From: Candidatus Methanogaster sp.
GTDB taxonomy: Archaea; Halobacteriota; Methanosarcinia; Methanosarcinales; Methanogasteraceae
Assembly: GCA_003194445.1 (NCBI GenBank)
Contig: PQXF01000011.1
Coordinates: forward strand, 49,201 to 90,942
DNA: 41,742 bases
Direction: 5' to 3'
Made by a program: the position numbers and the translations under genes. The notes beneath the pieces were generated by a model, which worked only from the letters and a program-made list of their open reading frames with translations, was not told where the DNA came from and ran no database searches. Below, one piece after another: positions 6,010 to 28,646 of this stretch. The first letter of the stretch is position 1, and each line of letters begins with the position of its first letter.

Positions 6010-6281
6010 GCAATCGACCGTATCATACCCATCTGTAGCCGGATTTTATAAGCGTATCCCACATCCCGTACCATCCATCTTCGAACAGCCTGATCGCTAC
6101 CCCGATCCATATATCTCACACTTTCGAGCCACCAATGCCTACACGATCAAATGCCGCTTTTCACCTTCAGCAATCCCTTCGCCTCTTCCTCAATACACAA
6201 CCCCTGTCGACGCACGCTCAATCCGAACCATATCTCCAACCCCCACACCCAGCGCATCCCGCACCACCCGATTGACCTTGA

Positions 6282-9163: not shown

Positions 9164-11035
9164 TCAGCCCACCTCAGCACTGCCGCCAACACCGGCACCA
9201 CCGAAACTCGTTCTCTGCACCACAGAATCAATGATGTTCACGACCTGCTTCTCCTCGATGATTCCGATCTCCTTTGCGGACTGAACAGAGCCAACGAGAT
9301 GCCGGATGCTTGCTGCAATCTCGTTTAAGAATCCGTGCAAGCCATGTGGCTTGTCTGAGTATGCTCTGAGTGCGATCCTGGTTATGTCTTTCTCTTTGTA
9401 CGGCTGGATTACAGCAGTGACGAGATAATACGCCCCCTCGCCAATCGATTCGCCTGCAAGGTTGAGGACAATCGTGTTATCTATCTCGTGTTCCCCGACT
9501 GTGTGAAGCCTGTGTGTGCAGGACTCTTTGATGAACGCTGCCGCCTCGTAAACCACAATTCCGCTGAACGAGAGTCCTTCCTCGATGTGTCTACTCTCCG
9601 CAGCAAGTTCCGCGAATTCGCCTTCAGTCAGGGCTTTTTCACGAAGGAACGGGCAGACGCAGTGAACCTCTTTTCCTCGCATCTGAACGGTGCATCTTTT
9701 GCCGGTGTGGTCTCTGTAGATTATGGTTGCGTCTATCTTTTCGTTGTGGACGCAACCCCTGGGCGTCAGCACGTATTTTGCAGTTCGCTCGCCATTCGGG
9801 TGGATGTTTGCAAGCGTCCGGACCCTATCACCTTTTAGCGAGAAGAGCGTTTTATCGTAGTCGAGTATCGTTTCCACGTCTGCAATCAGGTAAGGGGTTG
9901 GGTTGATTACGCGGATACCAAACCTGATGTCGTTGTTTGGCAGGACTTCGTAGCCACGTCTCACCTCGATTGCTGCGGACTCTCTTGTCGGTGTGGGTTC
10001 GGGCACTGGCTGCGGCGCCGGCTGTGGTGTTGGTGCTGGCTCTGGCGGAGGTGTGGGGTCGGGTGGTGCTGGTTGGGGGATTGGTTCCGGCGGCGGTGGT
10101 GATTGCGGAGCTGGCTTGGCAACGACGGTAGGTGCTGGCAGCGGAGTAGTTTTGGTTTCTCTGGTGGTAGATGGTTCAAATGTCGCGTCCCGCCGTTTTC
10201 CGCGGAGTTTTCCTGTAAGAAGCGCGATTGCGAGCAGTGCGATGATCGCGCCGCCTGCGAGTTTGAGCATCTGTGTGCTGTCATCGTCCGGTTTCTGGGC
10301 GGGTGTTGGCGTGGCGATCCGTGGAACTTGGGTTGCTGTCGGAAGGACGGTTGTGCTTGCGTTTGTGTAGATTCCGTTCCAGTTACCATTCTCGTCACGG
10401 AGAGATGCCCACACCAACGCACGATCATAAGTTTCGTCGACCTGATACGCGTTTAATGTGAAGACCGTTTCGTCGGTGCCGGAGATCGTTCTGTTTTCGT
10501 CATCTGCCAGTCGATCTTTGTCTGTATCGGATTTTTCGAGGCTTAAGACGAGTTTCCAGTTAGATGGGATGTTTTCCCAGCCAACCGTGACTTCTACACC
10601 TTCGCCTCCGCGAATTGTGAAGGGAGAGTCGAGGATGCGAACCGAGGGGGTCGTATCTATGCCCCCGACCTTTATCAGCCAGAAATTATACCCGCCAGAA
10701 CCGTACGAACTCATCTCTCCTGCAAGGATGTAGCCACCGTCGGAGGTCTGCTTGACTAAGTAAGCCTCATCGTCTTCAGTTCCTCCAAAGGTCTCATACC
10801 ATTCCTTGTTTCCATCGGAATCAGTTTTTACAAGCCAGAAATCAAGATCACAAGAACCGTACGATTCCGTATCTCCTGCAAGGATGTAGCCACCGTCAGA
10901 GGTCTGCTGGACCGAGTTTGCCCACTCGTTCCCAGTTCCACCAAATGCCTTGCTCCATTCTTCTTCAGGCGCCATTTCAGCACATACCACGTTCGCGAAT
11001 ACGAGCAACAGCACGATTCCGATGATACGTTTCAT
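9164..11035 (-). CDS. single-pass membrane protein: signal peptide, extracellular beta-propeller (SBBP-like) repeats, TM helix, Pro-rich linker, cytoplasmic C-terminal domain
   Basis: 623 aa; N-terminal MKRIIGIVLLLVFANVVCA; repeated QTSDGGYILAG...D.WL.K propeller blades; TM segment AGGAIIALLAIALLTG followed by KLRGKRRD; PAPQPVPEPTP-type linker; Cys/His-containing C-terminal domain. Confidence 0.6.
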   Translation of the reverse strand: MKRIIGIVLLLVFANVVCAEMAPEEEWSKAFGGTGNEWANSVQQTSDGGYILAGDTESYGSCDLDFWLVKTDSDGNKEWYETFGGTEDDEAYLVKQTSDGGYILAGEMSSYGSGGYNFWLIKVGGIDTTPSVRILDSPFTIRGGEGVEVTVGWENIPSNWKLVLSLEKSDTDKDRLADDENRTISGTDETVFTLNAYQVDETYDRALVWASLRDENGNWNGIYTNASTTVLPTATQVPRIATPTPAQKPDDDSTQMLKLAGGAIIALLAIALLTGKLRGKRRDATFEPSTTRETKTTPLPAPTVVAKPAPQSPPPPEPIPQPAPPDPTPPPEPAPTPQPAPQPVPEPTPTRESAAIEVRRGYEVLPNNDIRFGIRVINPTPYLIADVETILDYDKTLFSLKGDRVRTLANIHPNGERTAKYVLTPRGCVHNEKIDATIIYRDHTGKRCTVQMRGKEVHCVCPFLREKALTEGEFAELAAESRHIEEGLSFSGIVVYEAAAFIKESCTHRLHTVGEHEIDNTIVLNLAGESIGEGAYYLVTAVIQPYKEKDITRIALRAYSDKPHGLHGFLNEIAASIRHLVGSVQSAKEIGIIEEKQVVNIIDSVVQRTSFGGAGVGGSAEVG

Positions 11036-11246: not shown

Positions 11247-11657
11247 CTACGCATCCCCAATCACTTCCTCAGTCCGATCGACAAAGTGTTCCGCCTCATT
11301 CAAGAGTTCGCCAACCTCATCATCATCAAGAACAACTTCAATATTGTAATTGCGCCTGTCCCGGATCGTCAAGCCATGCACTATACTTCTTACCTCGTCC
11401 TTGTTCAATTTCCCAAGTTTTACATACTTCCCGAGCTGCAAAATAACTCCTTTGTGCATCTTCGGCGAGATATCCTCCAGTACGAGGAATGTTTTTGCGG
11501 AATGGTTCATGGCATAATATGCATGGCTGACAGCACCTTCAAAGAATCCGCCCCTGTGATCATGCCACGCCATCTCAAGATAACGCCTGGATTTACGCAG
11601 ACGCGCTTTTACATTGTTCATACAATAGGACTCCTTCTCGCACGATTTTTCTGGCAA
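11247..11657 (-). CDS. HEPN-domain protein, partner of the upstream minimal nucleotidyltransferase
   Basis: Helical ~120-aa protein with HEPN-like conserved helix (AVSHAYYAMNHSAKTF) and RxxxHG; immediately follows an MNT gene; the true start is probably an internal Met (11621 or 11576). Confidence 0.5.
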   Translation of the reverse strand: MPEKSCEKESYCMNNVKARLRKSRRYLEMAWHDHRGGFFEGAVSHAYYAMNHSAKTFLVLEDISPKMHKGVILQLGKYVKLGKLNKDEVRSIVHGLTIRDRRNYNIEVVLDDDEVGELLNEAEHFVDRTEEVIGDA

Positions 11658-11913
11658 AGTCGCTCATATTATTGAGTTGATATACGAGTATGGATGGTAG
11701 TTTGGAATAACGAATCACAAAATCCGTCACAACACCACAGATGTCGCCTGAGATGTTCTGATTCGCGTCCGTTGTCACTAAAATGTCGATATCGCTATCT
11801 TCCGTATCAACGCCTTTAGCAACTGAACCGAATAGTGTTATCGAAACTATTTCGTCGCCGGATGTTCTCAGAACCTCTTCTGAAAATCTTTCTGCAACTT
11901 CTTTTCGATCCAT
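11593..11913 (-). CDS. minimal nucleotidyltransferase (MNT) of an MNT-HEPN pair
   Basis: GS-x9-DxD motif (LFGSVAKGVDTEDSDIDILV); start taken at the MDRKEV Met, because the longer ORF 5' extension overlaps a duplicated zinc-ribbon remnant in another frame. Confidence 0.6.
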   Translation of the reverse strand: MDRKEVAERFSEEVLRTSGDEIVSITLFGSVAKGVDTEDSDIDILVTTDANQNISGDICGVVTDFVIRYSKLPSILVYQLNNMSDFARKIVREGVLLYEQCKSASA

Positions 11914-11961
11914 AATTACTATCCGATTCTGTTGTGTGGCATTGCCGACAGCATTCGTCCT

Positions 11962-12110
11962 CTCAGCGTCCAACCCCCACCCCGCACTCCGTGCAGAACT
12001 TCGTCCCGATCGGAACCTCAGCACCACACTCAGAGCAGATAACAACCTTCCTAACCTCCTGCACATGCGGAACCGCTAGTGCAGGTGAAACACCTCCACC
12101 CACAACAACA
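11962..12110 (-). repeat. ~150-bp direct repeat, copy 1: degenerate duplicate of the 3' end (C-terminal zinc ribbon) of gene 12908..15043
   Basis: About 88 percent identical to 12913..13061. On the minus strand it encodes ...VVVGGGVSPALAVPHVQEVRKVVICSECGAEVPIGTKFCTECGVGVGR, a near copy of the last ~50 residues of the 711-aa protein, preceded by an in-frame stop. Confidence 0.6.
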
Positions 12111-12135
12111 CAACCAGTTATCCACCCCCTCCACA

Positions 12136-12465
12136 TCAAACCAGCCTCCTCGCACCCTTAAGAACGCTCTTTATGAACAGGTTATCCCTCTTCATCGCAT
12201 CAAACTCGTTCCTTGTGTAAACCAGTGGCTCTATCGGCAGATCAGTCAGATCAAGAATCTTTCCGATCCGGTCAAAGAACCGCTCCTTAAAGTTCCCGAC
12301 GATGATCAGGTCGATGTCGCTCCCCTCATGAATATCCCCCCTCACAAAAGAGCCGTACAGGTAAACCTCGCAGTTGAACCGTTCTCCGAGATCACCCGAG
12401 AATTCCTCTACCTCTTCGAGAATCTCTTCACGCTTTCCAATATCAACTCTGCGTAGCGTATGCAT
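12136..12465 (-). CDS. minimal nucleotidyltransferase (MNT)
   Basis: LYGSFVRGDIHEGSDIDLIIV motif; overlaps the 3' end of the upstream HEPN gene. Confidence 0.6.
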   Translation of the reverse strand: MHTLRRVDIGKREEILEEVEEFSGDLGERFNCEVYLYGSFVRGDIHEGSDIDLIIVGNFKERFFDRIGKILDLTDLPIEPLVYTRNEFDAMKRDNLFIKSVLKGARRLV

Positions 12466-12803
12466 TGTTCCGCATCCTCCATCTCATAGAATTCAGCAGG
12501 TGCTAACTCGCCAGCCAATCCGTCAGGATACCTTGTTGGGATGTAAAACATATCCAGATGGCGGGCATAAGATTCCACATCAGAAAAACCATTTTCTATC
12601 TTTTTGCACTCTCTCACCAATTCCTTGTTGGAGTGTGTTATAATCGAGGTGTACCCCTGCAAATAAAGGAAGAACTTGAGAGTCTTCTCTGCGGATTGCT
12701 GTGCCTGAAAACATGCCCAGTTATAGTGCCCGCTCTTCAAGCTATCCTTTGCGGCTTTCAGATCTTCTTCTGCCTGTGTGAGCCATTTCCTTGTCTCTCT
12801 CAT
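12408..12803 (-). CDS. HEPN-domain protein
   Basis: 131 aa; conserved HEPN helix (CFQAQQSAEKTLKFFL) and ...YIPTRYPDG motif; paired with the downstream MNT. Confidence 0.6.
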   Translation of the reverse strand: MRETRKWLTQAEEDLKAAKDSLKSGHYNWACFQAQQSAEKTLKFFLYLQGYTSIITHSNKELVRECKKIENGFSDVESYARHLDMFYIPTRYPDGLAGELAPAEFYEMEDAEQCIRYAELILESVKRFSKR

Positions 12804-12907: not shown

Positions 12908-15043
12908 TCATTCAGCTCGCCCAACCCCCGCCCCGCATTCCGTGCAGAACCTCGTCCCGACCGGAACCTCAGCCCCGCACTCAGAGCAGATAACGACCTT
13001 CCTGACCTCCTGCACCGGCGGTGCCGCTACTGGTGCAGGCGAAACACCTCCACCCACAACAACCGGCTGCCCGCTACCACTACCACCGCCCGTCACAACA
13101 GTCGTTCCGCCTGATGCCGCACCCTGCGCCCGTGTCGCAGCCGTGGTCCCCATCTGCCTGAGTGCTTCTGCCGTCATCCGCTCAACTCTGTCTCCGCCTT
13201 TGTCCGCCATCTCCTGTATCGTCCGTGCGAATGCGTCTTTGTCAGAGAGCCGATCCTCGTACATCCGCATGATCTCCTCAGCGCTCTTTGATCTGTACTT
13301 CTCCTTAAACGCATCGGCGATTGCCGCACTGTCCTTTGCCCCAAGAGCAAGTATCTGCTCCTCGGTAAGACCTGTCGCAAGCTTCATTCTCGCAAGTTCG
13401 CTCAGATGTTCCGCACCTTTCCCCTCCGAAACAGAGATGAGCGCCTCATCCGTAGCCGCTGAACGCGCCTTAAGCCGATCGGCCTCAAGATCGGCCTCTT
13501 TCTGCATCTTCTCAAGTTCGAGCGATTGGTAGCCAGCCACGTCCTCCCGTTTCGCTGCTTTCATCGCTTTTAGCAGTTCGATTCCTTCTCTCGCAGCTCT
13601 CGCATCTTCTTCGTCTTCTTTCCGCTCTTTCTCAACTTTGAGATCGTGCGCCTTTCGCTCCATCTCCAGTTCATGCAGACGACGTTTCGCGTCCATATCC
13701 AGATCGTGCGAGCGATGCTCTGCATCCATATCCAGTTCGTGCCGCTGTTCGATGCGACCTAACATCAATCTCCGTGCAACACTTCTATCCTCCCGGTTCT
13801 CCACGAATATCTGCTTGAGCTCAGCCATCTCGTTCTCTCGTATGACCTTGTCCCGGTCAAGCCCATACAGAAACGTCTCAAGCTCTTCCGCATTCCCGAG
13901 TTCATCCATCTTATCATCAGTCAGTCTTGCACGCATCCTCTTTGTGAGTCCAAGCCGCTTACTGTCGAGATCTTCTATCCCCTCGTCAATAACATATTCC
14001 CCTTCTTCAGACGTTAATTCTCTCTTTTTAGCGGCTACACGTTCTTCGTACTCGACCAGTTGCAGCTCGGAATCCTGCTTTATCTGCTCCCTCCTCCTGA
14101 TCAACTCTCGTGCAGACTCGCCCCGTGCACCGATTATATCGCCCCAGTAGCTCTCATCGTAGTCGAAATACGGCAGGTACACGAGGTTCAGACCAGTTCT
14201 TTCGAGCGTAGTCTTCAGCAGATGCTCAAAGTCCTGCTCGATCTCTTTCTTCAGTTCGAGATTGCCATACAGGTCCTCAAATGAATACTGCTTGACCTTC
14301 GGTTGCAACAGATTCGAGATCTCGCTTTCGAGCATCGCCTCAATGTCGGTCGTATCTATGCGTTCTCGCCCCTTCATCAGGTTGTTTGCGAAGAGTATCG
14401 GCGCCTCGACACCCACAACCATCTTGGCCATGACTCCTGAATCAAAGTTCTCCGCCGTTCTCAAGCCGCCGATCCTGAAGTCAAGCCGGACGTCCGAATC
14501 ATCCACAAGTATCACGGTTGCTCGCTCCCCGAAGTTCAGGTTCCGTATCGCATTGGTGAGCCCGCCGACCGTGTACGTCCCGGGCGTAAGTTCGCCTGTG
14601 AACCGTCCCCCCTGCAAAAATATCGCTTTCGTTCCCGGCATAACGGATATCTTCTTGCTAAAGACTCCTTTGATGTCGCTTACCTCAAACCGGCGTGCGA
14701 AGTCGAGCGGCTCTCTCCGCCACACCCTTACTTTGCCAGATTTTTCCGGCACCACCGCCGCCCTCACCCTCTCTTCTGCGGACTGAGTCATTCTGGCACC
14801 GCAGTTCGGGCAGAATTTGTGATCCGCGCCTACCGGCATGTCGCATTTGCTGCACATCATGCCGGATAGGAGATTTCCGCACTGTGAACAGAATTTACTC
14901 TTCTTGCTGTTCTCTGTTCCACAGTTACTGCACTTTATCTTGCCAAACATCTCTTTGGTACCTCCCTGTTCTACTTCAATTCCCCACCACAAAACGGGCA
15001 CATCTTCCACCCTTCTTCCACGTCCTGACCGCAGCCGGGGCAC
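12908..15043 (-). CDS. flotillin/SPFH (band 7) domain protein with N-terminal triple zinc ribbon, long EA/ER-rich coiled coil and C-terminal zinc ribbon
   Basis: 711 aa; N-terminal CSNCG...CSQCG...CSKCD...CPNCG; SPFH-like segment (VGVEAPILFANNL...DIEAMLESEISNLL...); about 300 aa of coiled coil with repeated HELDMDAEHRSHDLDMDAKRRLHELEME; C-terminal CSECGAEVPVGTRFCTECG. Confidence 0.6.
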   Translation of the reverse strand: MPRLRSGRGRRVEDVPVLWWGIEVEQGGTKEMFGKIKCSNCGTENSKKSKFCSQCGNLLSGMMCSKCDMPVGADHKFCPNCGARMTQSAEERVRAAVVPEKSGKVRVWRREPLDFARRFEVSDIKGVFSKKISVMPGTKAIFLQGGRFTGELTPGTYTVGGLTNAIRNLNFGERATVILVDDSDVRLDFRIGGLRTAENFDSGVMAKMVVGVEAPILFANNLMKGRERIDTTDIEAMLESEISNLLQPKVKQYSFEDLYGNLELKKEIEQDFEHLLKTTLERTGLNLVYLPYFDYDESYWGDIIGARGESARELIRRREQIKQDSELQLVEYEERVAAKKRELTSEEGEYVIDEGIEDLDSKRLGLTKRMRARLTDDKMDELGNAEELETFLYGLDRDKVIRENEMAELKQIFVENREDRSVARRLMLGRIEQRHELDMDAEHRSHDLDMDAKRRLHELEMERKAHDLKVEKERKEDEEDARAAREGIELLKAMKAAKREDVAGYQSLELEKMQKEADLEADRLKARSAATDEALISVSEGKGAEHLSELARMKLATGLTEEQILALGAKDSAAIADAFKEKYRSKSAEEIMRMYEDRLSDKDAFARTIQEMADKGGDRVERMTAEALRQMGTTAATRAQGAASGGTTVVTGGGSGSGQPVVVGGGVSPAPVAAPPVQEVRKVVICSECGAEVPVGTRFCTECGAGVGRAE
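12913..13061 (-). repeat. ~150-bp direct repeat, copy 2 (authentic 3' end of gene 12908..15043)
   Basis: See copy 1. The two copies bracket exactly the HEPN-MNT pair 12136..12803. Confidence 0.6.
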
Positions 15044-16239
15044 TTTGATTCGAGTTCATTCCCACAAAACGGGCACATCTTCCATCCAGCCTGCACTATA
15101 TTGCCACATTTCGGGCAGGTCTTTTCAGGTTCAGACTCGTGTTTCGGTTCGGATTCGGTAGCGCTCGTTGCACCACCCACCTCACTCCGCTGCACGATAC
15201 TACCACTCATCTCAACACTCCTACTTCCCTCATACAGCATTTCACCACCCTCGTCTTCTTTAATCGCAGCGCCACCAACCGCACTTTTTTGAATAACACT
15301 CTCTTTGATCTGTGTAGCTCCGGAAGCCACGACCTCGCCGATAGAGCCGATATCAACCTTTGTTACCGTTTTATCCGATTCGACTACAGAGACCAGGAAA
15401 CCCTTTTCAGTAGAGTGTTTCTCTCCATTTTCATCCGTGCATGTCACGTCCAGCTCCAGGCTTACAGAACCACTCTCTTGTGTTTTTAAGACCATGGGAA
15501 TGGTCACGCACTGGTCAGGAGCAAGCGTTTCATCGTAGGTCTGCACTTTGTCCAGATCGAATTTCGAATCTTTTTTCACTGACACGGTCAGGTTCATCAT
15601 CTCTTCGTTACTCAAATTCTCAAAAATAAAACCAATCTCTTTCCATTGATCCTGTGTCATCTCCGGTTCTGTCATCCGGATGCCCAGCGGGCTGACATGG
15701 ATTTCCGCCTCGTTTGACGGGATGTCGTCCAGTGAAAATTTATTCTCGATCTCGCACATCGCTTTCGTTCGGAAATATCCGCCCACGTTTGCCCGGATCC
15801 TATATTGATACTCCATTTCTCCGTCCGGGTTTAACTGGCACTCCATCAGGGGCATCTCTCCGATCAACTCGAATTGAGGCGGCACCTCATCTGTTACAAT
15901 GCAGTCCAGCACACCCGTTCCATATCGGCTTTTAAGTTTTATTGCCATGGTCACGGTTTCTCCGATCTCCATGTACTGTTCTGAGCACGTTCTGGAAAAT
16001 GTGAGTATGGACTTCTCCCCTATCGATATCTTTGAGATTCCTTTTTGTATACCGCCAACTACTGATGCCGAACCGGATTTTGCTTTTTCTGTTATGCCGC
16101 TTGTGTCTATCTTTCCTTTCAGTTTATCTCCGGCACTGGTCATCGCCTCGACATTAACTTTCTCAGTTATCTTTTTTTGTATGTCGCCACTCTCTATTTT
16201 TTCTTTCATCCTTTTAGAAAGGTTTTTTAATCCTTTCAT
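14971..16239 (-). CDS. uncharacterised protein with beta-rich central domain and C-terminal duplicated zinc ribbons
   Basis: 422 aa; C-terminal CPKCGNIVQAGWKMCPFCGNEL followed by CPGCGQDVEEGWKMCPFCGGEL; start overlaps the upstream gene by 4 nt; 3' end overlaps the next gene. Confidence 0.5.
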   Translation of the reverse strand: MKGLKNLSKRMKEKIESGDIQKKITEKVNVEAMTSAGDKLKGKIDTSGITEKAKSGSASVVGGIQKGISKISIGEKSILTFSRTCSEQYMEIGETVTMAIKLKSRYGTGVLDCIVTDEVPPQFELIGEMPLMECQLNPDGEMEYQYRIRANVGGYFRTKAMCEIENKFSLDDIPSNEAEIHVSPLGIRMTEPEMTQDQWKEIGFIFENLSNEEMMNLTVSVKKDSKFDLDKVQTYDETLAPDQCVTIPMVLKTQESGSVSLELDVTCTDENGEKHSTEKGFLVSVVESDKTVTKVDIGSIGEVVASGATQIKESVIQKSAVGGAAIKEDEGGEMLYEGSRSVEMSGSIVQRSEVGGATSATESEPKHESEPEKTCPKCGNIVQAGWKMCPFCGNELESKCPGCGQDVEEGWKMCPFCGGELK

Positions 16240-17804
16240 TGTTTCTCCCCTCCCCGCACCATACTTTCAATAATTCTATATTCCTTTTCAGATATTCTCT
16301 CCTTATTTTTCAGTTTCTCTGCCCCTTTTAGGATAACCTCATGCGTATCCGAAGAAGAACCGACGATGGAATTGTTGAATGTATGCTCTAAGACCTTCAA
16401 TTCAAGTTCCTTATCATTCACCAGTGTCTTTGTCACACCACCTCTGATTAAAAGATCAAAACCTTCTCGACGCTCTATTTTCTTGAATTTGGTTAGTAGA
16501 GCTGAAGATAGGGATTTTGTCTCATCATCGATGTAGTTTGGTGGAAAGACGACGAACCTCTGCGTTCCTGCTTTATCGTCTTTGAATGCAGCGATGTAAA
16601 CCGGTATGTATGCGAAAAAGGAGCCGTGAACATCTTTCGCCACGTCGGGCAAAGGCAGATTGATGCCCAAGTCGTTGATCCGGTCGGTCAGCTCGTTCTT
16701 CATATTTATAACGTATGCTTCTTTAGCATCTTCCAATCGCTCCGAGAGGCGATCAAGTTTTTGAGTCTTTTCCTGGTATTCATAACCGATGCTTTTTGTT
16801 TCGTTGTCGAAATTCTCAAGTTTCGCATCCAGAACCAACAGCTGGTCATGAAGTTCTTTTCTGCGGTTCTCTGCCTTCATTTTGATCTCCTTGATCTCTC
16901 CGTCTACCTCTACCAATTGCTTTTTGTATTCTGCGACTGCGTTTTTTAGCTGTTCACGTTCTTCAACAGTTTTGGTCTGGGAAAGTGCATCTTTTTCCTG
17001 ATTATGCTTGTATTCTATGGTTTCCCTGCGGCCCACTCGGACAGAGAGTAGTTTTTCCTCATCCTCATCATTACCACGTTTTAACTGCTTGATCTCCAAA
17101 GCTTTTATCTTGAATGCATCTATCGTCTCCCTTCGTTTTTTGTTCCTTTCTGAAATCACTTGTTCGCACTCCGCATCCAGGTTTTTCTTTAGCGCATCGG
17201 TTTTCCTTGTTAGTATCCCGCTAACACTGTCTAATATGGACGGCAACCCGGATAATTTGTCTTCCTCGCAATCAAGCACCCTGCGAATCTCCTGAACCTC
17301 CGGATCGTCCTCATACCCCCATGTATCGAACACAAAAGTACCAGTATCTTCTCGTTCATACGCAAAACTTAGAAATCCTTTCAAGTCGTCCAGGACGTTT
17401 TTGCTCGGCAATGAATTAAACTCCAGCGCATTCTTTTTGATTTCCGTAACCGAAGAGAGGAGCGCAGAAAACTCGCGTATATATTCGTCATAGTCCGCCC
17501 CCACCTGACCGAACTTTTCCTCCAACGAGTCAAGATCATGCGCCACGACCTCAGGGAAATACAGCGTCTTTTCATCTGCAAGCATCTGATGCAGAAACAG
17601 GATGCATCGCTCCCTTCTCTCATAAAACGATACGAGCAAGGGTATGGCTAACTCCGCTATACCATCCATCACTTCTCCTGACTTTTTGAGCATCCCGCCG
17701 CCCTTTCGGCTCTTATTTACTTCAAGCAGCAATCCGGGCAGGTACTCTTCTTCCGAGACTTTGCCGTTCTTTGATACTGCAAATGGAATGGATATCATCT
17801 TCAT
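16236..17804 (-). CDS. long coiled-coil protein (uncharacterised)
   Basis: 522 aa; central ~250 aa strongly heptad-like and E/K/R-rich; stop overlaps the downstream gene start (ATGA-type 4-nt overlap). Confidence 0.5.
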   Translation of the reverse strand: MKMISIPFAVSKNGKVSEEEYLPGLLLEVNKSRKGGGMLKKSGEVMDGIAELAIPLLVSFYERRERCILFLHQMLADEKTLYFPEVVAHDLDSLEEKFGQVGADYDEYIREFSALLSSVTEIKKNALEFNSLPSKNVLDDLKGFLSFAYEREDTGTFVFDTWGYEDDPEVQEIRRVLDCEEDKLSGLPSILDSVSGILTRKTDALKKNLDAECEQVISERNKKRRETIDAFKIKALEIKQLKRGNDEDEEKLLSVRVGRRETIEYKHNQEKDALSQTKTVEEREQLKNAVAEYKKQLVEVDGEIKEIKMKAENRRKELHDQLLVLDAKLENFDNETKSIGYEYQEKTQKLDRLSERLEDAKEAYVINMKNELTDRINDLGINLPLPDVAKDVHGSFFAYIPVYIAAFKDDKAGTQRFVVFPPNYIDDETKSLSSALLTKFKKIERREGFDLLIRGGVTKTLVNDKELELKVLEHTFNNSIVGSSSDTHEVILKGAEKLKNKERISEKEYRIIESMVRGGEKQ

Positions 17805-17949
17805 GGTTCATCGCTCCTGATTTAACCTAATCTCGGTTTCTGGTGTTACGATCTTACGCCATATCATCCTCGTCAGTATAAAACTGTAGTGAATGTTCAT
17901 CTCATCTGCCCTCCACAATACGGACAGAACTTCGGCGTCTTCGGCAGAT

Positions 17950-19242
17950 TCAGTGCCTCACCGCAATGGGGCAGTTTGAGAACGGCTTTTCGCCACCACC
18001 ACCGATTGTACTCCTTGTCGCAACCACATCTCCCGTAATTTTCGTACCACCAACGATATCACCCCCAGCAACCTGCTTTTGTCCAGAAACGTAGTCACCT
18101 GCGATAAACACGCTTGAAATGTATTCCTTTACCCTTGTCTGTTCCTCAAGTCTATCAAGCATCCTGTGATAAAATCCCACAAGAGCCGACTCTTCTTCTG
18201 CCCATGCCTCCAGAACCAGCCTCGAACTGCCGGCTTCCGAACCAATGACATTCAACTGGGCTGCATACTTCATCCCGCCTGCCGCACCAAGAGCTGCGTA
18301 TCTGGCAGAGCCGCTGAAATACCCGGGCGCTGAATTCCACACAGGTTTGAGCATGGACATATTCATAGACCGCAGGGCATGGGTTGCGACATTGAACAGG
18401 GTTTCTGCTGGCACAGGAATCTCTTCGTGGGTCTCTTTTGTGGAGATTAGATTGGCTGTGTGGTCAAACCATGTGTCATCTTCGGTTTTAAATCGTTTCA
18501 GAATTGCGCATTTGATATTAACTTGTTTTGGCTTGATTTTTATTCGTTCGTGGTTGTCGGATGCGGTATCGTAATATGTGACCTCGCCTTCGATTACGCA
18601 GTCCCCGCACTCACCGGTCGGTCGAATGGTAAAGGTTGTAGTCTGGCGTTCTTTTGATTTTATCAGTCCAATCGTCTTCTCTTTTTCGCCGAGCAGAAAT
18701 ACCTGCGGCACGAAGAGGGTTGCTTTCACGTCTGCTATCGAGTGGTCGAGCTGGTTCTCGATGCTTACCTTGAAGTCGATGTTTGCGCCGTGGTATTCGG
18801 ATTTGGATTTGAGGATGATTTTTGGTTCTGCTTCTTCTACTCTTGATTTGATCCTATCAAGTGCTTCTTTTGCATGTTTCCTGACATCCTTGTCATAATC
18901 GGTGGTTGCATTTTCAAGCGCAGGGATTGCTCTTGGATCGCCGATCTTACCGAGTGAAAAGGCAGCATACATACGCACAATCTTATCTTCATCTCCAAGA
19001 GCGGTTATCAGAGGCTCAACCGCCCTCACATCACCAATCTCACCAAGTGCTCCGGTAGCAGCCCAACACACAAAAATATCTTCATCGCCAAGTGTAGTTA
19101 TTAAAGGCTCAACCGCTCTTCTATCGCCAATCCCACCAAGTGTTTCGGCAGCCCTCTCACGCACCTTCCAATCTTCATCCCCAAGCGCATCTATCAACCC
19201 CCCAACATCCCTCCGTCTTTCCAATTCATCTATATCAACCAT
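17950..19242 (-). CDS. HEAT (PBS-lyase type) repeat protein with C-terminal beta domain and Gly-rich tail
   Basis: 430 aa; three tandem repeats of the form LGDEDxxVRxxAAxALGxIGDxRAVEPLIxxL; C-terminal tail [21 protein letters not shown] shared with gene 19361..20404. Confidence 0.6.
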
Positions 19243-19360
19243 TTACGAACACATCCGCGCATTGTTCTCCATTCCTCCGATCTTCAACGCCTCGCTGCAG
19301 TAGGGGCAGTTCGAGAGCGTCTTCTCTGCCGACCCCACCCCACCCCTCGGCATCCCAACA

Positions 19361-20404
19361 TCACCTCGTCCTGCCCCCGCCGGCGATATCGCCCCCAGCA
19401 ACCTGCTTATCCCGCCCAATCTCCCCCGTAAAATTCGCGATATGAAACACCTGCTGCCCCACCGTCTCTTCCGTCAATCGTGCCACCTGTATCCACGCCT
19501 CACCAACCGCAGTATCTCGTCGCCCCTGCATGTCCCTGTACTCGGCATAGATCTTGAACTCCATCCTGCCGTGTGGAAGTGGCTTCACCGAGAGCGCAAG
19601 CCCGGTCTCGTACTCCTGCTTCATCGTCTCAAGCGATGCGACAGTCTCGCCTTCCACAGGTGCGTCAAGCTTGATCTTCACATCCTTCGCAACGCCGTCC
19701 CCATTATTTACAATCCTGAGCAACACCCGCGAATACGTATCCTGCCTGAGATTATCAGTGGTCACGTCAACAGAGAGGTGGGGTGTGCCTGTGGTTTTGA
19801 TGCCTGTTATCTGTGATTCCGCTTCCAGAATGCCATATTCGCATGATTCTATATGCTCGATGCAGGTTTCTCGGCTATATTCCACATCTTGATCGAACTC
19901 CATTCGTAACGACTCGTTGAAGTGTTCAACTGCACTTTCAAGTAGTGGCAAACTCTCTTTATATGCAGAAAGCGCTTCATCCCAGTTAAAAACAGCCTCG
20001 GATGCCTTTGCAAGACAATGATGATAGAGTGCACGATCATGATATGCACCACCAATCATGGTATGATACGATGCAATATCATCCTGTTCTTCAGAGATTT
20101 CTGCCGCCTCCGCAATTGATGAGTGTGAAGGGAGTAAGTAGCTTGCAGCTTCCCTGAAATATTCCGCCTGTTCGCTGCCGGATGGTGCATCTACAACAAT
20201 ATTGTTTGCAAGTAACAGATACTTATTTCCCTCTGCCATACGTGCATCCTTGGTCCGGATCAACCTGCTTTCTTCTGTTTCTGCCCTCTCTGCTGCCTGC
20301 AGATAAAGAACGATTGCCATATCTAACAACTCGACCGCTTTGTCCACATCCTCTGTTCCGATTGCTCGATCGCAACATTCCTCTGCCTGTTCCCATAGTT
20401 CCAT
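19361..20404 (-). CDS. paralog C of a helical (TPR-like) domain family, fused to a beta domain and Gly-rich tail
   Basis: 347 aa; N-terminal 200 aa homologous to the two downstream-encoded paralogs (MELWEQA.../MELCEQA...); C-terminus ...[18 protein letters not shown]. Confidence 0.5.
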   Translation of the reverse strand: MELWEQAEECCDRAIGTEDVDKAVELLDMAIVLYLQAAERAETEESRLIRTKDARMAEGNKYLLLANNIVVDAPSGSEQAEYFREAASYLLPSHSSIAEAAEISEEQDDIASYHTMIGGAYHDRALYHHCLAKASEAVFNWDEALSAYKESLPLLESAVEHFNESLRMEFDQDVEYSRETCIEHIESCEYGILEAESQITGIKTTGTPHLSVDVTTDNLRQDTYSRVLLRIVNNGDGVAKDVKIKLDAPVEGETVASLETMKQEYETGLALSVKPLPHGRMEFKIYAEYRDMQGRRDTAVGEAWIQVARLTEETVGQQVFHIANFTGEIGRDKQVAGGDIAGGGRTR

Positions 20405-20410
20405 CTCTTT

Positions 20411-21028
20411 TCACCTCACAGATCGCCTCTTCGCTTTCGCTTCCCGAATGCCTGCTCTGCACAATTTCATGTAGTCAAGGCAGTCTTTTCGGCTCTTCCT
20501 CCGATCCCTGTTGGATTCGATCTGCAGGGACTTATTAATATGCTTAAGCGCGGTTTTAAGAATAGAGAGCGCCTCCTTGTAGCCAGAGAGCGCAGATTTC
20601 GTGTCACCAACCGCATAAGATGCCCATGCAAGATAATAATGATGGAATGCCTGATCAGTATATGCGATACCAAGCCTGTTGTAATACGGAGCCTGGTAGC
20701 CTTGTTCTTTGACGATTTCCGCTGCTTCCGTTCGCGATGAAACTGCTGTAAGCATCTGATCCGCAGCCTCTTTCAGATAACCTGCCTGCTTACTTCCGGA
20801 CGACGCAATTGCAGCGTCAACAAGTTTGCTAGCAATCATGGTGCATCTATTCGCCTCTGAATTCCTTGCATTCCCTATGCAAGCTGCTCTTTGCACTTCT
20901 GTTATATCTTGCTCTGCTGACTGCAGCCAGAGTGAGATCGCCTTATCCAGGAGCTTGATCGCAACATCTTCATTCCGTGCTTTAGCTGCTTCATCCTTGT
21001 ATTTTGCTGCCTGTTCACATAGTTCCAT
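20411..21028 (-). CDS. paralog B, helical repeat protein
   Basis: 205 aa; clearly homologous to 21035..21661 at the protein level, with near-identical nucleotide blocks (e.g. ttaagaatagagagcgcctccttgtagccaga at 20560 and 21180); 6-nt spacing to neighbours. Confidence 0.5.
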   Translation of the reverse strand: MELCEQAAKYKDEAAKARNEDVAIKLLDKAISLWLQSAEQDITEVQRAACIGNARNSEANRCTMIASKLVDAAIASSGSKQAGYLKEAADQMLTAVSSRTEAAEIVKEQGYQAPYYNRLGIAYTDQAFHHYYLAWASYAVGDTKSALSGYKEALSILKTALKHINKSLQIESNRDRRKSRKDCLDYMKLCRAGIREAKAKRRSVR

Positions 21029-21034
21029 TTCTAT

Positions 21035-21661
21035 TCACCTCGCGGACCGCATCTTCGATCTCACACCTTGAATGCTCGCTCTGCACCATTCCATGTAGTC
21101 AAGACAGTCGTTTCGGTTGTCCTCCCTATCGCTGTTGGATTCTATTCGCAGTGACTTATTAAAATGCCCAAGCGCGGTTTTAAGAATAGAGAGCGCCTCC
21201 TTGTAGCCAGAAAGCGCAGTATCCAGATCACCAACCGCATCAGACGCCCATGCATGATAGTAAGAATAGAATGCCTTATTCGAATGTACAATACCGAGCC
21301 TGTTGTAATACACAGCAGAGTATCCATATTCTCTGGCGGTTTCTGCTGCTTCCATCCTGAGCAAACTGGCTTTGAGCATCTGATCCGCAGCCTCTTTCAG
21401 ATAACCAGCCTCAACGTCCCCTGATGACGCTCTTGCCTTATCAACAAGTTTGTTCGCAAACATAACACTTCTGTTCGCCTCCGCAGTCCTTGCATTCCCA
21501 ATATTAAGTGTTCTTGACATCTCTGTTTCACCTTGCTCCGCTGCCTGCAGCCAGAGCAAGATCACCTTATCAAGGAGCTTGATCGCCTCGTCACTATCTT
21601 CTGTCCTGCGTGCTCGATCCTTTAACTCCATCGCCTCGTCCCCGGGTTTCACTTCTTTCAC
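21035..21661 (-). CDS. paralog A, helical repeat protein
   Basis: 208 aa; see paralog B; start overlaps the upstream gene by 4 nt. Confidence 0.5.
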   Translation of the reverse strand: MKEVKPGDEAMELKDRARRTEDSDEAIKLLDKVILLWLQAAEQGETEMSRTLNIGNARTAEANRSVMFANKLVDKARASSGDVEAGYLKEAADQMLKASLLRMEAAETAREYGYSAVYYNRLGIVHSNKAFYSYYHAWASDAVGDLDTALSGYKEALSILKTALGHFNKSLRIESNSDREDNRNDCLDYMEWCRASIQGVRSKMRSAR

Positions 21662-22860
21662 CTCACAACCAGCATAACATCCTTAGCCCCCTCCTCCGGA
21701 AGGATGAACTCTCCCTTTCCATCCTCAACCATCTCCCTGAACGCAGCCATCACGATCTTCCTCGGAACCTGATACTGTAATGCCACCTTATCAGCCCTGA
21801 ACTGCGACATACCACCGGTCACCCCCTCTTTAAGCTTCGCAACCATATCTCCGATCTCCTCCTCGATTGAAACGGGCACGAACCACCCGGAAAAGAGCTT
21901 CGTCTTCTTATCACCGTCGTTCCCAAAGACCTCCCCCTCGCTCAGATCAACAAGATAGACGCTCTTGTTCATGTTTCTGATGCTTGTCACCTTATCAATG
22001 ATCCATTCGCTCCATCCTGTCGGCGATACCAGAACCAGAGCACCATAAGAATTTTTACCGCCTTCATCCGGTTGAATGAATCCCGTAATCATATCAGATA
22101 CATCCTTTCCGACTTTCCGGTAAATGAAACCCTCTTCATCCTCCGGAACCAGGAATTTGATCTCGAACCTGATAGTCGCACGTTTTTTGATCATGCCTCT
22201 CGTGATCTCTGCCGTGATCCCTTCATCCGTTGCACCTATCTCCCAGGCACTCCTGCCGTACTCATCCCCTGTGAGTGGATTGGTAACTCCCCTGCTGGTG
22301 AGGCGGGACTGCATCAAGGAAAAATAATTCAGCCGCAGGAACAAGGCATCTTCCTTTGATAGCAAACGATCCCGTATCGTCTCTTCATCCTCTGCCAAAA
22401 TGTTATCAATAGTGCTTTTAATCCGCTCCACCTCGCGGAGTTGCTCCAACACATTCGCAGATAGCAAGGATATCTTCTGCAACTCTTCACCCATCTGTTC
22501 CCTTTGCTCAACTTCAGACTCTAAAATCCGGCTCTCAATCTCCTGCTCCTTCTCAAGAATCGCTTGCTGCTGCAGGAGAATCCCCTCTTCCTTCGTTTCC
22601 AGTTGACTTTTCTTCTCACGCCATTCGTTCGCAATCCCTGAAACAACACCTCTGAAATCCTCGATCCGGGCGTCGATCAGTTCCCTGATGGCTTGTCCTG
22701 CCATACCCTCTGAAGCGTGCTCGCGGTATTCGTCGACTGACTCTCTGTGTACGCGTGTGGTCTCCTCAAGAACTCTCGCGTCCTCTAACAGTCTCCTGGC
22801 AGCAGACAGCACATCACCCATCTCGCCAGCGTCTCTGAAGAACAGCGGTTCCTTGTTCAT
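21658..22860 (-). CDS. uncharacterised protein: N-terminal coiled coil plus C-terminal alpha/beta globular domain
   Basis: 400 aa; residues ~90-170 coiled coil (QLETKEEGILLQQQAILEKEQEIESRILESEVEQREQ); C-terminal domain with ALVLVSPTGWSEW and SVYLVDLSEGEVFG segments; no canonical P-loop. Confidence 0.5.
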   Translation of the reverse strand: MNKEPLFFRDAGEMGDVLSAARRLLEDARVLEETTRVHRESVDEYREHASEGMAGQAIRELIDARIEDFRGVVSGIANEWREKKSQLETKEEGILLQQQAILEKEQEIESRILESEVEQREQMGEELQKISLLSANVLEQLREVERIKSTIDNILAEDEETIRDRLLSKEDALFLRLNYFSLMQSRLTSRGVTNPLTGDEYGRSAWEIGATDEGITAEITRGMIKKRATIRFEIKFLVPEDEEGFIYRKVGKDVSDMITGFIQPDEGGKNSYGALVLVSPTGWSEWIIDKVTSIRNMNKSVYLVDLSEGEVFGNDGDKKTKLFSGWFVPVSIEEEIGDMVAKLKEGVTGGMSQFRADKVALQYQVPRKIVMAAFREMVEDGKGEFILPEEGAKDVMLVVR

Positions 22861-23372
22861 CAGACTCCACCCCCGGCCGTTGCCATATCTTTCATCAGAA
22901 AGTCTGCCCTGTCCAGGAAGATGTTTCGCAGGTTGTCAACATCTCTCTTCACTTTTCTCATCTGCAAAATGATGTCAGACGTCTCTCCCTTCAGCACGTG
23001 GTCATAAACAAGGTCTGTTGCCTTCGTTACAACCTCCAATTCACTGAAGAGGTCTCTATCAAACTCCACCATCCGGTCCAAGGCGTCATCCGATACCTTA
23101 GCCTCCTTGAATAGTGGCGATAACCCGTAAGAAGCGTTCTCTATCTCGTTTCTGAAGAGGTCTATGGTGCTCTGAAGGTCTTTGATATGCTCCAGCACAT
23201 CACGCCGCCCATCCTTGTATGCTAAGTCGCCGACCTCATTGAGCGTATTATACGACTTTTTCAGTTCCCGTGAAAGCTTATCTCGTACAGCCCGGTCTGA
23301 GTTCAGTCTATCCTTCTGCACCCGATAACCGTAACCCGGAATGATTTTCTCTATCAATTTTGACATCTGCAA
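22860..23372 (-). CDS. small helical protein, first gene of the nine-gene cluster
   Basis: 170-aa ORF whose stop overlaps the next gene start by 1 nt; an AT-rich TATA-like element lies ~50 nt upstream. Confidence 0.45.
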   Translation of the reverse strand: MQMSKLIEKIIPGYGYRVQKDRLNSDRAVRDKLSRELKKSYNTLNEVGDLAYKDGRRDVLEHIKDLQSTIDLFRNEIENASYGLSPLFKEAKVSDDALDRMVEFDRDLFSELEVVTKATDLVYDHVLKGETSDIILQMRKVKRDVDNLRNIFLDRADFLMKDMATAGGGV

Positions 23373-23420
23373 TCACAACCTTCATCGCGTATCGATAGGC
23401 ACATCTTAAGACCACGACTC

Positions 23421-23430
23421 ATATAATAGT
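23421..23430 (-). promoter_or_regulatory. candidate TATA box for the minus-strand cluster (reads ACTATTATAT on the minus strand)
   Basis: AT-rich octamer ~50-60 nt upstream of the 23372 start, in an otherwise GC-balanced intergenic region; no BRE identified. Confidence 0.25.
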
Positions 23431-27093: not shown

Positions 27094-27402
27094 ATGAAAC
27101 AAATAGTAAAAGAAGTCGGAGAACTGGTAAAAAAGGAGTTTAACGTAGAGAAGGTGATTTTATTCGGCTCTTTTGCTTCCGGAGAACCTTCGCCGAGTAG
27201 CGACCTTGATATTTTAGTTATTATGGATACCAAATTGAAGCCTTACAAACAGTCAGCCTTAATCCGCATGAAGTTGGATGAAAAATTGGGTGTGAAAGTT
27301 CCCATAGACCTGATCGTGAGAACGCCACAACAGATTAACGAACGACTAAATTTGGGCGATTTCTTTATAAAAAATATATTAACCAACGGAGTCCATTTAT
27401 GA
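27094..27402 (+). CDS. minimal nucleotidyltransferase (MNT) of an MNT-HEPN pair
   Basis: LFGSFASGEPSPSSDLDILVIM motif; 4-nt ATGA overlap with the HEPN gene; AT-rich relative to flanks. Confidence 0.7.
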   Translation: MKQIVKEVGELVKKEFNVEKVILFGSFASGEPSPSSDLDILVIMDTKLKPYKQSALIRMKLDEKLGVKVPIDLIVRTPQQINERLNLGDFFIKNILTNGVHL

Positions 27403-27776
27403 AAGAACTGACAAAAGAATGGATAGACAAAGCAGAGGGTGATTTTAGTGTTGTTAATCGGGAATATGAGGCTAAAAACCCTATTTATGATGCGGTATGC
27501 TTTCACGCCCAGCAATGTGTAGAGAAATATATGAAAGCAATATTACAAGATAACAACATAAAGTTTGGGAAGGTCCATGACCTTGATCTCTTGTTGGAAA
27601 AATGTAAACATTTCGTGCCTCTTTTAGAAGAGCACAATGCGGAGTTAATAGAACTTTCCAGTTTTGCAGTAGAGATAAGGTATCCCGGTGTAACAGCGGC
27701 GGAAGAAGAGGCAGTAAATTGTATCTCGATAATGGAGGGGGTACGGAAGATTATAAAAGAGTATTTTGAAGAATAA
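27399..27776 (+). CDS. HEPN-domain protein
   Basis: 125 aa; CFHAQQCVEKYMKAIL HEPN helix and ...EIRYPGV motif; translationally coupled to the MNT. Confidence 0.7.
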   Translation: MKELTKEWIDKAEGDFSVVNREYEAKNPIYDAVCFHAQQCVEKYMKAILQDNNIKFGKVHDLDLLLEKCKHFVPLLEEHNAELIELSSFAVEIRYPGVTAAEEEAVNCISIMEGVRKIIKEYFEE

Positions 27777-27962
27777 CCGAGACAGAAAAGGAAAATGGAA
27801 AAATGAGATTTGCATTCGTAAAGATTGGGATAAAAAATCCTGTAAATCAGAGAAATCAAGGGAAGAGCGACTGCTGGTCGATTCAGGTGCGATTTATACC
27901 GTGGTTCCGGCAGAGGATTTGCAGGAACGGGGGATAGCCGCACACAGTGAAGGGAGTTTGAA

Positions 27963-28646
27963 TTGGCAGATGGCGAGGTCATTAAGCGCAAAGTAAGAAA
28001 CGCCTACTTTGAAGATGAGATAAGAGCGATCCTGACCTCGATACAGGATGAAATCCGATCGAGACTCGATGAGTTCGATTCGGTCCTGAAAACCGGGGAC
28101 GAGGAAAAAGTCTTCGCTGAACTCGTCTTCTGCGTATTAACCCCGCAGTCAAAGGCAAAATCCGCTTGGGCTGCCGTAGAGCGTCTTCTTGATAAGGATC
28201 TGCTGCTTGCCGGGACTGAGGATCAGGTTCTCAGGGAGTTAACCGGGGTGCGATTCAAGTATAAGAAGGCAGGATACATCATAAAAGCGCGGAACATGTT
28301 CATAATCGATGGTAAACTCGTCATCAAGTCCCGGATCAGCCGGTTCAGCGATGCCTGTGATGCAAGGGAGTGGCTCGTCCAGAATGTGAAAGGGATCGGC
28401 TACAAGGAGGCAAGCCATTTTCTGAGGAACGTCGGACATGGAGAGGATCTTGCGATTCTTGACAGGCACATACTGAAGAATCTGAGATCGCTTCAGGTGA
28501 TCGAGGAGGTTCCAGCTTCCTTATCGCGGCGGAGGTATCTTGAGATAGAGGAAGGGATGAAAGAACTTTCAGAGGGGGTTGGAATCCCTATGAGCCATCT
28601 GGATCTTGTTTTGTGGTATAAGGAGACTGGGGGGGTGTTTAAATGA
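27963..28646 (+). CDS. ogg: archaeal-type 8-oxoguanine DNA glycosylase/AP lyase (Ogg2 family, HhH-GPD)
   Basis: 227 aa; HhH segment with catalytic Lys (VKGIGYKEASHFLRNVG) and downstream Asp (ILDRHIL); size and layout typical of archaeal Ogg. Confidence 0.7.
   Translation: MADGEVIKRKVRNAYFEDEIRAILTSIQDEIRSRLDEFDSVLKTGDEEKVFAELVFCVLTPQSKAKSAWAAVERLLDKDLLLAGTEDQVLRELTGVRFKYKKAGYIIKARNMFIIDGKLVIKSRISRFSDACDAREWLVQNVKGIGYKEASHFLRNVGHGEDLAILDRHILKNLRSLQVIEEVPASLSRRRYLEIEEGMKELSEGVGIPMSHLDLVLWYKETGGVFK

Follow-up and report, generated by a model that had tools for sequence, protein, structure and literature searches.

Organization of the gene block

We analysed a 41,742-nt stretch of a contig from Candidatus Methanogaster sp. 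(PQXF01000011.1, positions 49,201 to 90,942; hereafter the window), containing nine minus-strand genes, designated P1 to P9, that a first-pass annotation had described as an uncharacterised flotillin, zinc-ribbon, coiled-coil and HEAT-repeat system. All nine open reading frames (ORFs), at 12908-23372, are present and every one has homologues (Table 1). As had been proposed, profile searches with P1-P9 revealed no enzymatic domain in any of the nine proteins, and a transmembrane (TM) segment was predicted in none of them (0/9). [quoted passage not shown]

Table 1. Genes of the nine-gene block and of the adjoining region (window coordinates).
Feature	Coordinates	Strand	Description
P1	22860-23372	minus	small, all-helical
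P2	21658-22860	minus	400 aa; N-terminal helical/coiled-coil region, central globular domain
P3	21035-21661	minus	helical paralogue
P4	20411-21028	minus	helical paralogue
P5	19361-20404 (intact ORF); 19243-20404 (with frameshifted ribbon remnant)	minus	P3/P4-type helical domain, immunoglobulin (Ig)-like beta domain, Gly-rich tail, frameshifted degenerate zinc ribbon
P6	17950-19242 (intact ORF); 17897-19242 (with out-of-frame ribbon)	minus	
P7	16236-17804	minus	
P8	14971-16239	minus	N-terminal domain, two Ig-like (adaptin-C2-like) domains, two tail motifs, double zinc ribbon
P9	12908-15043 (ORF); 12908-14950 (from homologue-supported ATG)	minus	double zinc ribbon, SPFH/Band 7, long charged coiled coil, Gly/Ala/Pro linker, C-terminal zinc ribbon
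Two HEPN/nucleotidyltransferase pairs	11247-12803	minus	HEPN E 2e-31, 3e-12; NTP_transf_2 E 2e-12, 3e-10 (Pfam)
Membrane protein	9164-11035	minus	signal peptide, extracellular repeat domain, one TM helix, Pro-rich linker, cytoplasmic appendage with tail motif
Transglutaminase-like + helical repeats + CDC48_N-like protein	6214-7944	minus	broken by two frameshifts
SWIM zinc-finger protein	4432-6009	minus	Pfam SWIM E 3e-6; system membership uncertain
DUF2283 small protein	4160-4411	minus	E 1e-8; between SWIM gene and 134-aa gene
134-aa protein without known domain	3585-3989	minus	possible accessory gene
Putative ESCRT-III-like protein (E3)	2275-2889	minus	204 aa; directly upstream of ATPase
Vps4/CdvC-type single-AAA ATPase	937-2199	minus	420 aa; AAA E 3.5e-36, Vps4_C E 2.9e-5 (Pfam)

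The tight packing described for the block is real at several junctions: P1 and P2 overlap by 1 nt at 22860, 4-nt overlaps join P2 to P3 (21658-61) and P7 to P8 (16236-39), and 6-nt spacers occur at the P3/P4 and P4/P5 junctions. The 73-nt overlap reported between P8 and P9 (14971..15043) is not, and appeared because a far-upstream GTG had been taken as the P9 start; P9 homologues begin at MFGKIKC, which corresponds to the ATG at 14950, 20 nt after the P8 stop codon. The start of P1 is probably the ATG at 23366, giving a protein of 168 aa. Inspection by eye gave candidate TATA-like elements ahead of P1 (~23420-23426) and ahead of P7 (~17876-17883). The gaps of 118 nt after P5 and 145 nt after P6 result from frameshifts in the two genes, which precede a C-terminal zinc ribbon retained in their homologues. 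The ribbon remnant of P5, at 19243-19360, is degenerate and abuts the P6 start, and that of P6, at 17897-17965, lies in another frame.

The SPFH protein P9 and the helical proteins P1, P2 and P7

The SPFH domain of P9 scored above the curated Pfam cut-off for Band_7 (27.3 bits versus 23.6, E 4.4e-6), and its zinc ribbons matched Zn_Ribbon_1 (E 2e-19). Three CxxC...CxxC ribbons were counted, comprising the C-terminal one already described and two, not the claimed three, at the N-terminus. The protein agrees with the description of arCOG15283. Two known arrangements were considered and rejected: a flotillin-NfeD operon, since NfeD is missing and the SPFH protein lacks a TM segment, and an accessory set for the S-layer or archaellum, since such domains are absent.

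Sequence and profile searches with the highly conserved P1 gave no significant match in Pfam or the PDB, and its sole family match was to the uncharacterised NCBIfam LIMLP_15305 family (E 4.6e-9). The C-terminus of P2 is strongly conserved and shows, in the alignment of homologues, a helix-turn-helix-plus-wing pattern, suggesting that it probably folds as a winged helix; a PDB profile search with P2 returned coiled-coil noise only and no winged-helix match. We recovered 67 homologues of P2, down to 34% identity and including one, 100% identical, from Ca. Methanogaster sp. of the anaerobic methanotrophic archaea (ANME) group ANME-2c. They come from sources labelled, among others, Methanoperedens, Methanospirareceae, Thermoplasmatota and Methanosarcinales, and a scan of viral contigs yielded no viral relatives. 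The architecture of P2 equals that of the protein with a coiled coil and a C-terminal winged helix-turn-helix (wHTH) encoded beside Vps4 in Methanosalsum and Methanococcoides.

P7 has 15 homologues, all with at least 52% identity. Its AlphaFold2 model is confident only for helices 168-276 and 280-379, which form an antiparallel coiled-coil hairpin of ~100 residues, and the domains N- and C-terminal of this hairpin are poorly modelled. Foldseek gave no match with E < 1e-3 for P7 (generic coiled coils), and no PDB or Pfam match was obtained. Local profile-profile comparisons with shallow alignments were negative for P1 against E3, and for P7 against P2, E3 and P1.

Appendage proteins and their tails

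The HEAT repeats attributed to P6 were confirmed by Pfam (HEAT_2, E 7.8e-30; HEAT_PBS also matched). An AlphaFold2 model built from a 12-sequence alignment, with a mean predicted local distance difference test (pLDDT) score of 76.6, shows the HEAT repeats at residues 1-135 (pLDDT ~95), followed by an Ig-like sandwich (142-243), an alpha/beta platform (255-374) and a disordered tail. The top PDB match of this model in Foldseek was a COPI large-subunit chain (5a1u_E; E 5e-12, 506 columns), spanning both the HEAT and the appendage parts, and it also matched the isolated appendages of gamma-COP and of AP2 alpha and beta. Sequence identity to the adaptin and COPI structures was 10-14%, with low global template-modelling scores of 0.2-0.33.

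Several other proteins of the locus contain related domains. P8 residues 92-203 aligned with the P6 Ig domain (hhalign 86%, E 5e-6), and the Pfam match of P8 to Alpha_adaptinC2 was weak (E 0.077). The C-terminal profile of P5, in turn, aligned with P8 residues 184-306 (hhalign 97%, E 1e-10) and with the P6 Ig domain (E 4.6e-5). That P8 ends in two zinc ribbons, as previously noted, was corroborated by DZR and Zn_ribbon matches (Pfam, E ~1e-9 to 1e-11), and its architecture equals that of the arCOG15284 protein WP_013898571. P5 homologues are ~45 aa longer than P5 and end in a zinc ribbon.

The C-terminal family of the membrane protein at 9164-11035, whose TM-like segments lie at residues 1-24 and 254-278, is the appendage family of P6 (hhalign 100%, E 1e-84, 240 columns). 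Homologues of this protein adjoin P9 in six related loci (L005, L009, L013-L015 and L031). Appendage modules in relatives are fused to PQQ propellers, to PKD, CARDB, DUF2341 or FGE-sulfatase domains, or to membrane segments, and a zinc ribbon is frequently terminal.

The Gly-rich tail KQVAGGDI(A/V)GG had been described in two proteins, and we found it in P5 and P6. Its proposed resemblance to a bactofilin-like beta-helix turn is unsupported, because P6 residues 375-430 are modelled as disordered (pLDDT 23-48) and the tail corresponds to the linker before the zinc ribbon in homologues; Pfam gave no DUF583 match. A short motif, [VIL]x[RKQ][ST]x[IVLF]GG, occurs between the appendage and the terminal ribbon in P6 (17950-18060), twice in P8 (~15160-15300) and in the membrane protein (9164-9230), and P5 has a related Gly-rich form only (19361-19400). 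It is enriched in the family: of 49 family ORFs, 22 contain it in their final 110 residues, versus 4 of 206 unrelated ORFs. It also occurs in the family in L005, L009, L013-L017 and L031-L032. We regard it as a candidate docking motif. A distant relative sharing the tail and ribbon, P0098, was named ProX-like by the Joint Genome Institute.

Helical paralogues

The three tandem helical paralogues that had been recognised correspond to P3, P4 and the N-terminal half of P5 (61% and 40% identity), with P3 and P4 sharing 61% identity. All three gave sub-threshold Pfam matches to MIT (E 0.0023 for P3, 0.014 for P4 and 0.025 for the third), and P4 also had weak TPR matches. The P3-P5 family profile matched the MIT domain of human VPS4A (1yxr, 2jq9) with E 0.0049, profile positions 136-191 covering the whole domain. 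The comparison of the helical paralogues with the N-terminus of the Vps4 encoded at the same locus was negative (hhalign, shallow alignments).

A putative ESCRT-III-like gene and a Vps4/CdvC-type ATPase

The protein encoded at 937-2199 is a Vps4-type ATPase. Its Vps4_C match exceeded the cut-off (24.4 bits versus 21.3), and the match to the NCBIfam CdvC model (E 2.9e-50) reached the end of the model, at a score far below the equivalog cut-off. The profile of its N-terminal family matched 2mpk, a solved MIT domain (E 1.9e-4).

The adjacent E3 is a helical protein, basic in its N-terminal and acidic in its C-terminal half, and its gene occupies the same place upstream of Vps4 as in published loci. 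An exhaustive HMMER search among 1.8 billion representative proteins found nine relatives, none of them with a Snf7 Pfam match. From its position, size and charge asymmetry, we infer that 2275-2889 encodes an ESCRT-III-like protein. In the C-terminal third of E3, over the acidic stretch ETKQALEMWDELESGEMDEDEFF, the family profile gave weak, non-significant EF-hand-like matches (centrin 3qrx, E 0.013).

Conservation in related contigs

To examine conservation, all window proteins were mapped by blastp on the ORFs of 40 related contigs (loci labelled L001 and so on). P1, with 51-91% identity among homologues, lies directly upstream of P2 wherever upstream DNA is present (~23 loci in independent contigs), and P9 is kept downstream of this pair in ~20 loci, either directly or following one to five genes. 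The genes between P2 and P9 mostly share a C-terminal module of ~280 residues with P6 or the membrane protein. P8 always lies behind P7, and this pair is confined to an ANME-2c-like subset (L002-L010, L025 and L036). P3-P5-type paralogues occur in one to three copies in the closest relatives only (L005, L011, L012 and L028). Conserved synteny, one of the checks proposed for the block, is evident for P1, P2 and P9, and P3-P6 are restricted to the closest relatives. The nine genes are not the single fixed operon that had been suggested; they comprise a widely conserved core of P1, P2 and P9 together with lineage-specific adaptors.

The E3 and Vps4 genes are associated with this module in several lineages. 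In L008, P2-P7-P8-P9 are followed by homologues of E3, which adjoins P9 (80% identity), and of Vps4 (77%). In the Methanoperedens locus L015 (JAHFDG010000015.1), E3, Vps4 and two appendage-protein genes lie upstream of P1-P2-P9, and in L002 the order is P7-P8-P9, a transglutaminase/CDC48_N gene, a small gene, an E3-like gene and an AAA ATPase. The Haloarculaceae contig L020 contains Vps4 and a P1-like gene, followed by SPFH.

Two additional observations were made on these contigs. A 597-aa Vps4-like ORF in L015 (L015:932-2725) has, after AAA and Vps4_C, a match to the DAC (diadenylate cyclase) Pfam family (E 1.7e-16), and represents either a fusion of Vps4 with a c-di-AMP synthase or a missed gene boundary. 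A Ser/Thr protein kinase is encoded directly before P7-P8-P9 in L002 (L002:1-1687) and L004 (L004:4770-6941), one of them fused to a PQQ beta-propeller, which recalls the association with kinases reported for the 'Main' clade of archaeal ESCRT systems.

Probable assignment to the Meth_adaptin class

The Meth_adaptin clade of archaeal ESCRT systems was defined by comparative genomics (Makarova et al. 2024, mBio, PMC10936438) and is present in Methanosalsum (type locus in M. zhilinae), Methanococcoides, Methanohalophilus, Methanolobus and Methanocorpusculum. Besides ESCRT-III, Vps4 and ProX, it comprises a coiled-coil protein with a C-terminal wHTH, two adaptin-appendage proteins and an SPFH protein that bears a coiled coil and a zinc ribbon; one appendage protein combines a zinc ribbon with an uncharacterised N-terminal domain, and in the other a TM linker connects the appendage to a GOLD domain (PMC10936438). 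The window matches this set feature by feature save ProX, with the ESCRT-III identity of 2275-2889 and the winged helix of P2 as putative matches and with the Methanosalsum proteins compared by description and architecture. P9 supplies the SPFH protein with coiled coil and zinc ribbons; at least two proteins contain an adaptin-appendage region (Ig plus TBP/platform); and the protein encoded at 937-2199 is the Vps4-family AAA ATPase, identified in this class by an MIT domain or by a position beside ESCRT genes. Likewise, the putative ESCRT-III-like gene lies directly upstream of the ATPase gene, P8 combines zinc ribbons with an extra N-terminal domain, the membrane protein at 9164-11035 is tied by a TM segment to an extracytoplasmic domain, and P2 is a coiled-coil protein of ~400 aa with a C-terminus that is probably winged-helix-like. 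The earlier statement that the block could not be assigned to any described system is thus superseded, and we consider it likely that the nine genes supply the scaffold and adaptors, one half of an ESCRT-III/Vps4-linked system of the Meth_adaptin type. The whole system would span roughly 937-23372 and constitute an expanded variant in ANME-2c (Ca. Methanogaster).

The locus differs from the described Meth_adaptin systems in the presence of P1, invariant in ANME, Methanoperedens and Thermoplasmatota-type loci, and of the P7 hairpin, the MIT-like P3-P5, the HEAT-appendage fusion P6 and the transglutaminase-like/CDC48_N protein. Because none of these is mentioned for Meth_adaptin, they extend the described system. 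A further double ribbon sits at the N-terminus of the SPFH protein, ProX is absent, and the gene order is different, the adaptors being encoded in one long co-directional array 10 kb from E3 and Vps4. HEAT repeats are named in the text of PMC10936438 only for eukaryotic adaptins and in the abbreviations of the Fig. 3 legend; in the portions examined of its supplementary tables, separate HEAT-repeat proteins (arCOG02966) are listed in a haloarchaeal ESCRT locus, and these portions contain no ANME or Methanoperedens genomes. No other paper describing archaeal HEAT-appendage fusions came up in a full-text literature search.

The crenarchaeal Cdv system (CdvA-CdvB-CdvC) resembles the locus in the pairing of a putative ESCRT-III-like protein with a Vps4/CdvC ATPase, given the CdvC match, and in a partner with a coiled coil and a probable winged helix. 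Unlike Cdv, the locus has no CdvA (PRC barrel), its ATPase is not within the CdvC equivalog range, and nothing found here points to a role in cell division.

Toxin-antitoxin cassettes and other genes

As had been noted, a toxin-antitoxin cassette lies at the 3′ end of the block, where two HEPN/nucleotidyltransferase pairs follow P9. Direct repeats of 144 nt with 81% identity (11967-12110 and 12918-13061) bracket the first pair and duplicate the 3′ end of P9, and the downstream repeat remnant (11969-12088) encodes a peptide that shares 92.5% identity with the C-terminal end of the L005 homologue of P9. This comparison suggests that the first cassette came in through recombination with related DNA. 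Gene calls for L001, which is the Logan copy of the region, place a third pair at 27399-27991, beyond the isoleucyl-tRNA synthetase gene. Cassettes of this type are common in the surroundings of the locus and in its relatives L005, L009 and L042.

A tblastn search with the intact 540-aa homologue from L002 (Transglut_core, E 4e-7; CDC48_N, E 4e-10) recovered the transglutaminase-like/CDC48_N gene in three segments and two reading frames, as would be consistent with two frameshifts. This gene is found downstream of P9 in L002, L003, L005 and L012. The 134-aa protein encoded at 3585-3989 has homologues in the Thermoplasmatota-type loci L016 and L034, where their genes lie immediately upstream of P1 in divergent orientation, and may be an unrecognised accessory protein or regulator of the system. 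A fragment 90% identical to the SWIM protein adjoins P6 in L028, and the DUF2283 protein is probably a small mobile cassette unrelated to the system.

Discussion

Several lines of evidence weigh against the assignment of the block to a Meth_adaptin-type system. E3 had no significant Snf7/ESCRT-III match in Pfam, NCBIfam or PDB sequence searches, and in hhalign comparison with an approximate yeast Snf7 sequence the expected region and helices were aligned with E 0.07 at best. The MIT-like three-helix bundle proposed for P3-P5, C-terminal in P3, is borderline (E ~0.002-0.02), the likeness of P2 to the published coiled-coil/wHTH proteins is one of architecture, and no ProX-like ORF was found among the scanned ORFs between 937 and 23372. 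Four frameshifts relative to intact homologues affect three genes of the system (P6 at 17960-17975, P5 at 19355-19370 and the transglutaminase-like/CDC48_N gene at ~7570 and ~6342), and may reflect either decay of this copy or imperfect assembly of the metagenome-assembled genome. We also know of no experiments on any member of the Meth_adaptin class.

Two further points of this kind concern the linkage itself. About 10 kb of other genes, including the two toxin-antitoxin cassettes, separate P9 from E3 and Vps4 in the window, and the E3/Vps4 pair is not within the fetched flanks of the long related loci L014, L017, L031 and L032, where P1-P2-P9 are found; the link is therefore frequent, not obligatory. 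Both would fit a picture in which the nine genes form an autonomous flotillin/coiled-coil scaffold or cytoskeleton, as envisaged in the first-pass annotation, that operates without ESCRT-III and Vps4, with proximity to those genes being incidental. Nevertheless, E3 and Vps4 abut the module in L008, L015 and L002, and Vps4 does so in L020, which belong to different lineages; the same association exists in the published Methanosarcinales loci, and MIT-like domains, which bind ESCRT-III, appear in both P3-P5 and the ATPase. We thus consider an autonomous scaffold distinctly unlikely. The more general idea of that annotation, a non-enzymatic, membrane-associated machine for scaffolding or compartment organization, agrees with the gene content found.

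On the assumption of a Meth_adaptin-type system, we propose that P9, which lacks a TM segment, would use its long coiled coil to oligomerise, forming a ring or cage at the cytoplasmic side of the membrane. Proteins combining the appendage (Ig plus platform), the Gly-rich linear motif and a terminal zinc ribbon would dock on this platform, with P6 (HEAT solenoid), P5 (MIT-like domain) and P8 acting as soluble adaptors. Membrane appendage proteins with extracellular domains, such as that encoded at 9164-11035 and the PQQ-propeller, PKD and FGE-sulfatase fusions found elsewhere, would be the probable cargo or receptors. [quoted passage not shown] The outcome might be membrane budding or scission, leading to vesicle formation or to the sorting of surface proteins. 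Such a role in cargo sorting or vesicle budding, rather than in membrane repair, is possible, and we put it forward tentatively.

The same parts could alternatively serve in the stress repair or stabilisation of the membrane, as an archaeal counterpart of the bacterial link between flotillins and PspA. The SPFH cage would then mark damaged or specialised membrane and recruit the ESCRT-III-like polymer to seal it, with the appendage membrane proteins acting as envelope sensors. Bacterial SPFH proteins are indeed tied to PspA/ESCRT-III-family proteins (PMC10936438, PMC7619361), and in YdjI-PspA of B. subtilis, as proposed for the window, an SPFH scaffold is genetically linked to a polymer of the ESCRT-III superfamily. 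In relatives, moreover, the module is fused to, or has as gene neighbours, Ser/Thr kinases and extracellular domains of a sensor-like kind (PQQ propeller, PKD and FGE-sulfatase). Unlike YdjI-PspA, the locus encodes a Vps4-type AAA motor, appendage adaptors and an SPFH protein with zinc ribbons and no TM segment, and a PspA-family match or signature was absent for all proteins searched. The appendage adaptors form a large and variable repertoire, and the membrane proteins bear domains of a surface type; together they resemble a diversity of cargo or adaptors more than they do a simple device for repair. The present data fit repair and budding alike, and we regard repair as unlikely.

The variability of the adaptor genes among close relatives, together with the HEPN/nucleotidyltransferase pairs near the module in the window, L005 and L009, could also be accommodated by a conflict or defence island, in which variable sensor-like adaptors trigger a membrane-directed abortive infection with participation of the cassettes. 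However, PADLOC matched no system and returned generic HEAT matches only, and there are no nucleases or NTPase sensors, and no viral relatives of P2. The duplication of the P9 3′ end around the first cassette marks the toxin-antitoxin genes as a secondary insertion, and the occurrence of a further pair beyond the isoleucyl-tRNA synthetase gene indicates that these cassettes are not confined to the locus. A defence function is consequently very improbable.

The domain order of P6, a HEAT-type solenoid followed by Ig and platform domains, is that of the AP and COPI large subunits (alpha-, beta- and gamma-adaptin, beta- and gamma-COP). Unlike these, its trunk consists of 135 residues with ~4.5 PBS-lyase-type HEAT repeats, versus more than 500 residues in adaptins; it has no long hinge, and its appendage leads into a Gly-rich tail and a zinc ribbon. 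No genes for mu- or sigma-like (longin) subunits were seen in the locus. PBS-type HEAT repeats are promiscuous fusion partners, and the same appendage occurs on many other domains in relatives. That P6 and its relatives are prokaryotic 'proto-adaptins' inside an ESCRT/SPFH sorting machine of a Methanosarcinales-related archaeon, outside Asgard, is a doubtful proposition. If it were true, the trunk-plus-appendage architecture of AP and COPI large subunits, and not the appendage alone, would predate eukaryotes.

To our knowledge, archaeal ESCRT systems beyond the Cdv division machinery are known through comparative genomics only. ANME-2c is an environmentally important methane oxidiser, and its compact, gene-dense locus offers more candidate parts than the published type loci: the P1-P2 core, MIT-like proteins that could couple adaptors to ESCRT-III, and surface proteins tagged with appendages, motifs and ribbons. 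These extra parts define concrete interaction hypotheses. Should the proto-adaptin reading be correct, the ANME-type locus, with P1-P2, P7, the MIT-like triplet and the appendage-tagged surface proteins, would represent a self-contained archaeal pathway for cargo sorting and vesicle budding, of a complexity so far undescribed. P6, if more than a chance fusion, would bear on the pre-eukaryotic origin of adaptor and coat architectures.

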